Shown here in pieces: positions 24,302 to 25,878 of a stretch of DNA of 64,000 nt. Each line of letters starts with the position of its first letter. The first letter of the stretch is position 1. The notes under the pieces were generated by a model, which saw nothing but the letters and a program-made list of their open reading frames with translations, did not search any database and had not been told where the DNA came from. Source of the stretch: Dictyostelium discoideum (Eukaryota); NCBI GenBank assembly GCA_000004695.1, contig CM000152.2, positions 160,001 to 224,000 on the forward strand. The letters run 5' to 3'. A program made the translations under genes and the position numbers.

Positions 24302-25878
<1,577 letters not shown>

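Follow-up and report, generated by a model that had tools for sequence, protein, structure and literature searches.

Does an enzyme-like reading frame that jumps to another frame inside a conserved block mark a misread gene or a broken one? The question arises in the window (the whole stretch of 64,000 nucleotides of Dictyostelium discoideum DNA that was analysed), where positions 24302..25832 of the forward strand of AX4 chromosome 3 hold an intronless divergent paralog of S-adenosylhomocysteine hydrolase (SAHH), flanked by an N-acetyltransferase gene and rpb8. The preliminary description of this DNA had proposed that a single base is missing here, either through a sequencing or assembly error or as a genuine disabling lesion. 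Below, we consider in turn what the locus encodes, how it differs from its orthologs, whether the differences are real, and what the intact gene may do.

An SAHH paralog distributed over three reading frames

The 5′ coding segment of the SAHH-like paralog (24302..24553, + strand) comprises codons 1-84 in window frame 2, starts with MTKLPF and carries the Pfam AdoHcyase match. Past codon 84, frame 2 continues through 17 out-of-frame codons to a TAG at 24605-24607, giving an open reading frame (ORF; 24302..24607) of 101 aa that matches letter for letter the AX4 protein record XP_642082.1, annotated as “hypothetical protein DDB_G0278035.” The central coding segment (24553..25798, + strand; delimited by translation, Pfam AdoHcyase_NAD and PDB alignments) lies in window frame 1, ends in ...SNYLGIDK, and contains the remainder of the substrate-binding domain, the NAD-binding domain (with the motif GYGYVGKG) and most of the C-terminal part. 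The conserved C-terminus is displaced to window frame 0 (25797..25832, + strand), where translation, PDB alignment and our residue table identify the SAHH tail ...GPFKPDHYRY with Lys426 and Tyr430. A full SAHH-like product in the AX4 window therefore needs three frames (24302-24553, 24553-25798 and 25797-25832), whereas in seven orthologs one uninterrupted frame covers both domains and the C-terminal tail. The genes on either side are intact in AX4: an Acetyltransf_1 (Naa50-like) gene with one intron at 23263-23872 (− strand), and rpb8 with two introns at 26227-27053 (+ strand), whose protein in the window is identical to XP_642084.1. A search for an AX4 protein entry corresponding to the downstream ORF (starts at 24538 and 24667) returned none in the sources searched, and our literature search found no paper mentioning DDB_G0278035, the read sets SRR26869267 and SRR28564541, or a Dictyostelium SAHH pseudogene.

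Joined in order, the pieces match solved adenosylhomocysteinases in the PDB with E = 1e-152 to 7.8e-161, and the Pfam families AdoHcyase (PF05221) and AdoHcyase_NAD (PF00670) with E values of 5e-97 and 1.5e-57; the corresponding scores of 325 and 194.7 bits far exceed the cut-offs of 25 and 27 for membership. Judged by these matches, the SAHH homology of the locus is far beyond chance, and the earlier assignment of the readings on both sides of the break to SAHH stands. By the same kind of comparison, the gene is a fast-evolving paralog and not the housekeeping SAHH (sahA), which sits elsewhere in the genome (P0004, 431 aa). Other than P0001, a 97% identical ortholog considered below, the best non-self matches in the protein search are sahA proteins at 67% identity; the paralog and sahA share ~64% identity over ungapped columns and 67% in the best local BLASTP alignment. 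Compared with sahA (DDB_G0267418-type; PF05221 + PF00670), the paralog has the same full-length two-domain architecture, and both it and the D. discoideum sahA are intronless and start MTKLP.... It differs in its changed active-site residues and a poly-Asn insertion, and the AX4 copy additionally in being frameshifted twice. Because sahA itself is without introns, a retrocopy origin cannot be inferred from the intronless structure of the paralog.

Frame-breaking deficits relative to syntenic orthologs

Using Rpb8 as an anchor to locate syntenic copies, we found that the order acetyltransferase, SAHH-like gene, rpb8 is kept across the D. discoideum species group, and that the paralog is a single open frame there. 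Intact orthologs were recovered from D. firmibasis (L005 6053-7543, 496 aa), D. citrinum (L006 6054-7640, 528 aa), D. dimigraforme (L009 5988-7466, 492 aa), D. cf. discoideum (L010 5732-7252, 506 aa) and assembly GCA_054859235.1 (L012 3105-4625, 506 aa), as well as from two assemblies labelled D. discoideum: P0001 (L001, 455 aa, 97% identical in the protein search) and P0121 (L004, 474 aa). Coding-sequence dS between AX4 and assemblies labelled D. discoideum is 0.07-0.08, and by sequence these assemblies seem to represent distinctly divergent lineages and not close AX4-type strains. Across 18572-31786, two assemblies so labelled, GCA_054859355.1 and GCA_054859385.1, reach only about 88-95% identity with AX4. 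A word-index protein search missed four of the intact orthologs, all with long poly-Asn tracts (D. firmibasis, D. citrinum, D. dimigraforme and D. cf. discoideum), although NCBI assemblies list them as genes; none has a precomputed Pfam hit. Since the search misses intact orthologs, absence from it is no evidence of absence.

Two further rpb8 neighbourhoods were compared. In GCA_054859145.1 (L007), whose Rpb8 is identical to that of D. citrinum, the paralog has been destroyed (L007 6520-7654): the first ~340 codons are gone, and the remnant, consisting of the last ~105 codons and 97% identical to D. citrinum, carries 1-nt and 8-nt deletions. This separate loss implies that the gene is dispensable enough to be lost repeatedly. 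In D. purpureum (L008, GL871001.1 5869-8561), the rpb8 neighbourhood has other upstream genes and no SAHH-like sequence, a result that concerns this neighbourhood and not the rest of the genome. Synteny of the paralog locus ends within group 4.

All seven intact orthologs carry, relative to AX4, 13 extra nucleotides at one site (lesion 1) and an A5 run at a second (lesion 2). Lesion 1 (24545..24567, + strand) reads TCAACACA-GCGGCAG-TTGCATCC in AX4 and was defined by DNA alignments with the seven orthologs. In a mismatch-free alignment, the first block, of 10 nt (AGATCATGCA), is gone between 24552 and 24553 and is flanked by CA/CA microhomology; the second, of 3 nt (CAA), is gone between 24559 and 24560, and GCGGCAG (24553-24559) is retained in between. 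In D. cf. discoideum (L010), the closest relative with an intact copy, the sequence is TCAACACA-AGATCATGCA-GCGGCAG-CAA-TCGCATCC, and most other intact orthologs end this region with TTGCATCC, as AX4 does. At the protein level, the seven orthologs read STQDHAAAAIA, from which AX4 has lost the Asp-His-Ala codons and one more for Ala; the lost Asp is invariant in 14 of 14 canonical SAHHs and 6 of 6 intact paralogs aligned, and L012, the seventh intact ortholog and outside that alignment, likewise reads STQDH. These comparisons revise the single missing base that had been proposed. The junction itself was described correctly base for base, with frame 2 ending in CAG (24551-24553), frame 1 beginning with GCG (24553-24555) and G24553 common to both, and the net effect on the frame is indeed −1. 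The size of the loss, on the other hand, is 13 nt in blocks of 10 and 3, and the joined product leaves a four-residue gap against PDB SAHHs (STQ....AAVAS vs STQDHAAAAIAK).

Lesion 2, a feature absent from the preliminary description, lies at 25795..25798 (+ strand), where AX4 has an A4 run and the seven intact orthologs have A5 (GAC AAA AAT GG). With the orthologs reading GA(C/T/A)AAAAATGG and AX4 reading GACAAAATGG, one A fewer, the result is a second −1 frameshift, after which frame 1 departs from the family consensus past ...SNYLGIDK and the conserved C-terminus continues in frame 0. As a homopolymer difference seen in the reference alone, lesion 2 could be a reference error, in which case the gene would still not be rescued. 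Alignments also reveal an in-frame 6-nt deficit at 25579..25584 (+ strand), equivalent to two Gly codons (AX4 RDGGHPSF vs RDGGGGHPSF in the closest orthologs). Upstream of this, TRF and the ortholog translations delimit an (AAT)78 tract at 25290..25523 (+ strand), which encodes a poly-Asn/Asp insertion after ...VDRYTFIR. The AX4 tract is longer than in several orthologs and shorter than in D. citrinum. The insertion is hypervariable, at about 20-100 residues, and underlies the range of protein lengths among the intact orthologs (455-528 aa); canonical SAHHs are without it and run from VDRY to the next strand through a short loop.

Sequencing error, recoding or recent loss

Gene calls on four Logan short-read contigs, which are independent assemblies of public runs, include exactly the same truncated ORF of 101 aa. 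Two of the four were returned for junction comparison, L002 (SRR26869267) and L003 (SRR28564541), and both match the window across the lesion 1 junction over about 1.3 kb. Reference and contigs differ at 24132 (C vs T, reference first), at 24526 (G vs A) and in poly-A lengths. The difference at 24526 is ACG vs ACA in codon 65, where the contigs agree with all other taxa; each of the two substitutions reflects either a reference error or a clone-specific SNP. Because they differ from the reference at these two other positions, the contigs are independent data and not copies of it, and because the lesion 1 junction recurs in independent short-read assemblies, an assembly error is excluded there. 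With the contigs running only as far as the AAT repeat, the support from independent reads covers lesion 1 only. While they exclude an assembly artefact, the Logan read sets may come from AX4-derived laboratory strains rather than from independent isolates.

Given these data, we regard it as very improbable that the AX4 reference was missequenced or misassembled at the frame break and that the real gene is intact. Local G+C is 47% over 24540-24590 against 21% for the window, lesion 2 falls in a homopolymer, where errors are common, and a reference that departs from the Logan contigs at 24132 and 24526 is either not error-free or not from the same clone; all of these would favour an error. However, contigs from two separate runs share both the junction and the 101-aa ORF, a 13-nt difference in two blocks is unlike a base-calling error, and the allele has further private indels. 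Between the two outcomes that the preliminary description had allowed, the error is thus rejected for lesion 1, and the genuine disabling lesion is borne out by the junction in independently assembled reads, by the second frameshift in the allele, and by the single open frames of the syntenic orthologs.

A real frame change might in principle be bypassed. Programmed recoding, whether by −1 frameshifting, transcriptional slippage or editing, would still allow a full-length protein to be made; both frame changes are −1, and the 67-nt overlap of the ORFs (24538-24604) leaves room for such an event. Against this, there is no in-phase X XXY YYZ slippery heptamer within 24531-24604, and the frame change occurs in none of the seven orthologs, hence no signal is conserved; on these two grounds, programmed frameshifting was rejected as a candidate. 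Recoding would moreover require two separate events and yield a product still lacking the invariant Asp-His, and we assign it a negligible probability. We also considered, and set aside, an intron that restores the frame: GT..AG pairs of suitable length do occur by chance, but each would remove at least 40 nt of continuous ortholog coding sequence, and both the paralog and sahA are intronless.

The reading that we favour, to which we give a probability of nearly nine in ten, is that 24302-25832 is the AX4 allele of a lineage-specific intronless SAHH paralog that was recently inactivated by small deletions, making it a young unitary pseudogene (null allele). Deficits of 13 nt and 1 nt disrupt the frame relative to seven syntenic intact orthologs, and the first of these lesions is present in independent data (L002, L003). 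Under this explanation, the 10+3-nt deletion at 24552-24560 would shift the frame after codon 84 and remove the invariant Asp-His, and the loss of one base from the A5 run at 25795-25798 would shift it again; translation from the ATG would stop after 101 residues, and no SAHH-like protein would be possible. The deletions probably arose by replication slippage or microhomology-mediated repair, and their loss-of-function effect would have been tolerated with sahA supplying the housekeeping activity. As in unitary (non-processed) pseudogenes, the indels break the frame at the ortholog locus, and no second copy of the paralog is in evidence. Unlike older unitary pseudogenes, the AX4 allele has no build-up of nonsynonymous changes, and its indels outnumber its amino-acid changes.

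The pattern of substitution bears on both the age of the loss and the constraint that preceded it. Pairwise Nei-Gojobori estimates over 431 ungapped codons give dN/dS of 0.05-0.18 among the intact orthologs, with dS up to 0.52, and 0.07 and 0.11 for AX4 against L001 and L004, respectively. By these estimates, the intact orthologs are under purifying selection, as expected of a real constrained gene in the species group. Polarised with the other taxa, the substitutions private to AX4 comprise 12 synonymous and 2 nonsynonymous changes, a ratio that departs from neutrality with p = 4e-7, taking about 79% of sites as nonsynonymous. We looked for relaxed constraint (dN/dS approaching 1) on the AX4 pseudogene branch and did not find it. 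The 12:2 ratio therefore places the gene under constraint along almost the whole AX4-specific branch and makes the inactivating indels recent. Unrelaxed substitution of this kind fits a very recent loss, but would also fit a sequence that continues to be used in some other way.

Such continued use would be expected if the AX4 locus were split rather than dead, with the 101-aa N-terminal fragment, a C-terminal product from the internal ATG at 24667, or both, being functional. Beyond the overwhelmingly synonymous 12:2, it can be said for a split gene that a gene caller predicts an ORF from the equivalent of 24667 on Logan contigs, and that the 101-aa ORF is annotated as a protein in AX4. The break, however, cuts the substrate-binding domain in two and leaves out of frame the C-terminal tail that completes the NAD site of the neighbouring subunit; no source searched annotates the downstream ORF as a protein, and the substitution ratio is explained just as well by a very recent loss. 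We consider functional fragments unlikely, and return to the young pseudogene as the preferred account of the AX4 allele.

D. discoideum has an unusually low base-substitution rate and a high rate of repeat slippage, and the excess of indels over substitutions in the AX4 allele would fit these rates. A separate observation concerns the direction of the substitutions: 11 of the 14 AX4-private changes replace A/T with G/C, chiefly A with G at third positions (for example, ACA>ACG, TTA>TTG twice, GCA>GCG twice and CTA>CTG), in a genome of 21% G+C, while the private changes of D. cf. discoideum are balanced. GC-biased gene conversion is one idea for the AX4 excess.

Active site and likely role of the intact paralog

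The NAD-binding elements of SAHH are the GxGxxG motif, Glu243, Asn248, Thr157-159, and Lys426 and Tyr430 of the partner subunit. To compare these and other functional positions, we tabulated residues (human numbering) for 14 canonical SAHHs from dictyostelids, animals and a planctomycete together with six intact paralogs. Among 238 columns that are invariant in the 14 canonical proteins, 55 are replaced in every intact paralog aligned. The paralog keeps His55, Thr57, Lys186, Asp190, Asn191, Glu243, Asn248, His301, His353, Phe362, Lys426 and Tyr430, and retains the GxGxxG motif as GYG(Y/N)VGKG. Changed positions include Asp131 (to Glu), Glu156 (to Gly/Ala), Thr157-158-159 (to Ser-Tyr/His-Asn), Arg196 (to Gly) and Asp223 (to Tyr/Asn). 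Accordingly, the ribose-contacting and catalytic set (His55, Asp131, Glu156, Thr157, Lys186, Asp190 and His301) is not fully conserved, the changes at Asp131, Glu156 and Thr157 being present in every aligned paralog. Among the NAD elements, GxGxxG, Glu243, Asn248, Lys426 and Tyr430 are kept and Thr158 and Thr159 are replaced, as is Asp223. In mouse SAHH, Glu156 binds the ribose 2′-OH and Thr157 the 3′-OH, with Asp131 proposed to donate a proton to C4′ (PMC4647836). From the replacement of Glu156, Thr157 and Asp131 we infer an altered or absent hydrolase activity, and the function of the intact paralog is probably non-canonical, being either altered or non-catalytic.

So many changes could also mean that the paralog family in its entirety is a sahA duplicate in decay and was never functional, the AX4 lesion being merely the latest step. 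In keeping with this, ligand-contacting Glu156, Asp131 and Thr157-159 are among the replaced invariant positions (residue roles from PMC4647836), the paralog evolves about four times faster than sahA (the sahA proteins of D. discoideum, D. citrinum, D. dimigraforme and D. firmibasis share 97-98% identity with one another), and the gene was destroyed independently in the D. citrinum-like assembly. Yet seven orthologs keep open frames of 455-528 codons, and dN/dS of 0.05-0.18 over dS up to 0.5 is incompatible with neutral decay. We judge a family that was never functional to be highly unlikely, and retain the reading in which a constrained paralog was lost recently in AX4.

In a neighbour-joining (NJ) distance tree, which contains no AHCYL sequences, the paralog forms a separate Dictyostelium-only branch outside all dictyostelid sahA. 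This placement is possibly a product of long-branch attraction, and we draw no duplication age from the tree. A natural comparison is with animal AHCYL1 and AHCYL2 (IRBIT), which are not known to have hydrolase activity. Like them, the Dictyostelium paralog is a duplicated SAHH-fold protein under selection in which active-site positions are altered. AHCYL/IRBIT-type proteins carry an N-terminal regulatory extension before the SAHH fold; the paralog does not, its residue 1-3 aligning with residue 3-4 of canonical SAHH. AHCYL structures also score far lower against it (3mtg 8.7e-107, 3gvp 2.1e-100) than AHCY structures do (about 1e-152 to 1e-161). With no extension and much worse AHCYL scores, an IRBIT-type identity is ruled out; from its separate branch in the distance tree, the paralog looks like an independent duplication.

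As a tentative proposal, which we hold at somewhat less than even odds, the intact gene may encode an undescribed Dictyostelium-specific SAHH-like protein, either an enzyme that has neofunctionalised or a pseudoenzyme with a regulatory role, acting in the methyl cycle or in adenosine metabolism, of which AX4 would be a natural or laboratory-acquired knockout. Conservation of the fold, of the NAD motif and of half the catalytic residues, next to the loss of Glu156 and the Thr157-159 triad and the hypervariable poly-Asn loop, together with purifying selection that is strong in at least five named taxa, may point this way. If this were true, work in AX4 would be blind to the function of that protein.

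The AX4 pseudogene itself is an ordinary, well-explained feature; the conserved paralog with its altered active site is mildly interesting. For annotation, DDB_G0278035 is what is left at the 5′ end of an SAHH-like gene of 450-530 aa, and it should be labelled accordingly. For the biology of Dictyostelium, the AX4 reference strain lacks a gene that is kept under selection in its relatives and that at least one other lineage has lost separately, and the choice of strain therefore matters for studies of the SAHH-like paralog or of methyl-cycle regulation. For the SAHH family more broadly, the intact orthologs offer a natural test of the SAHH fold without Glu156 and the Thr triad.
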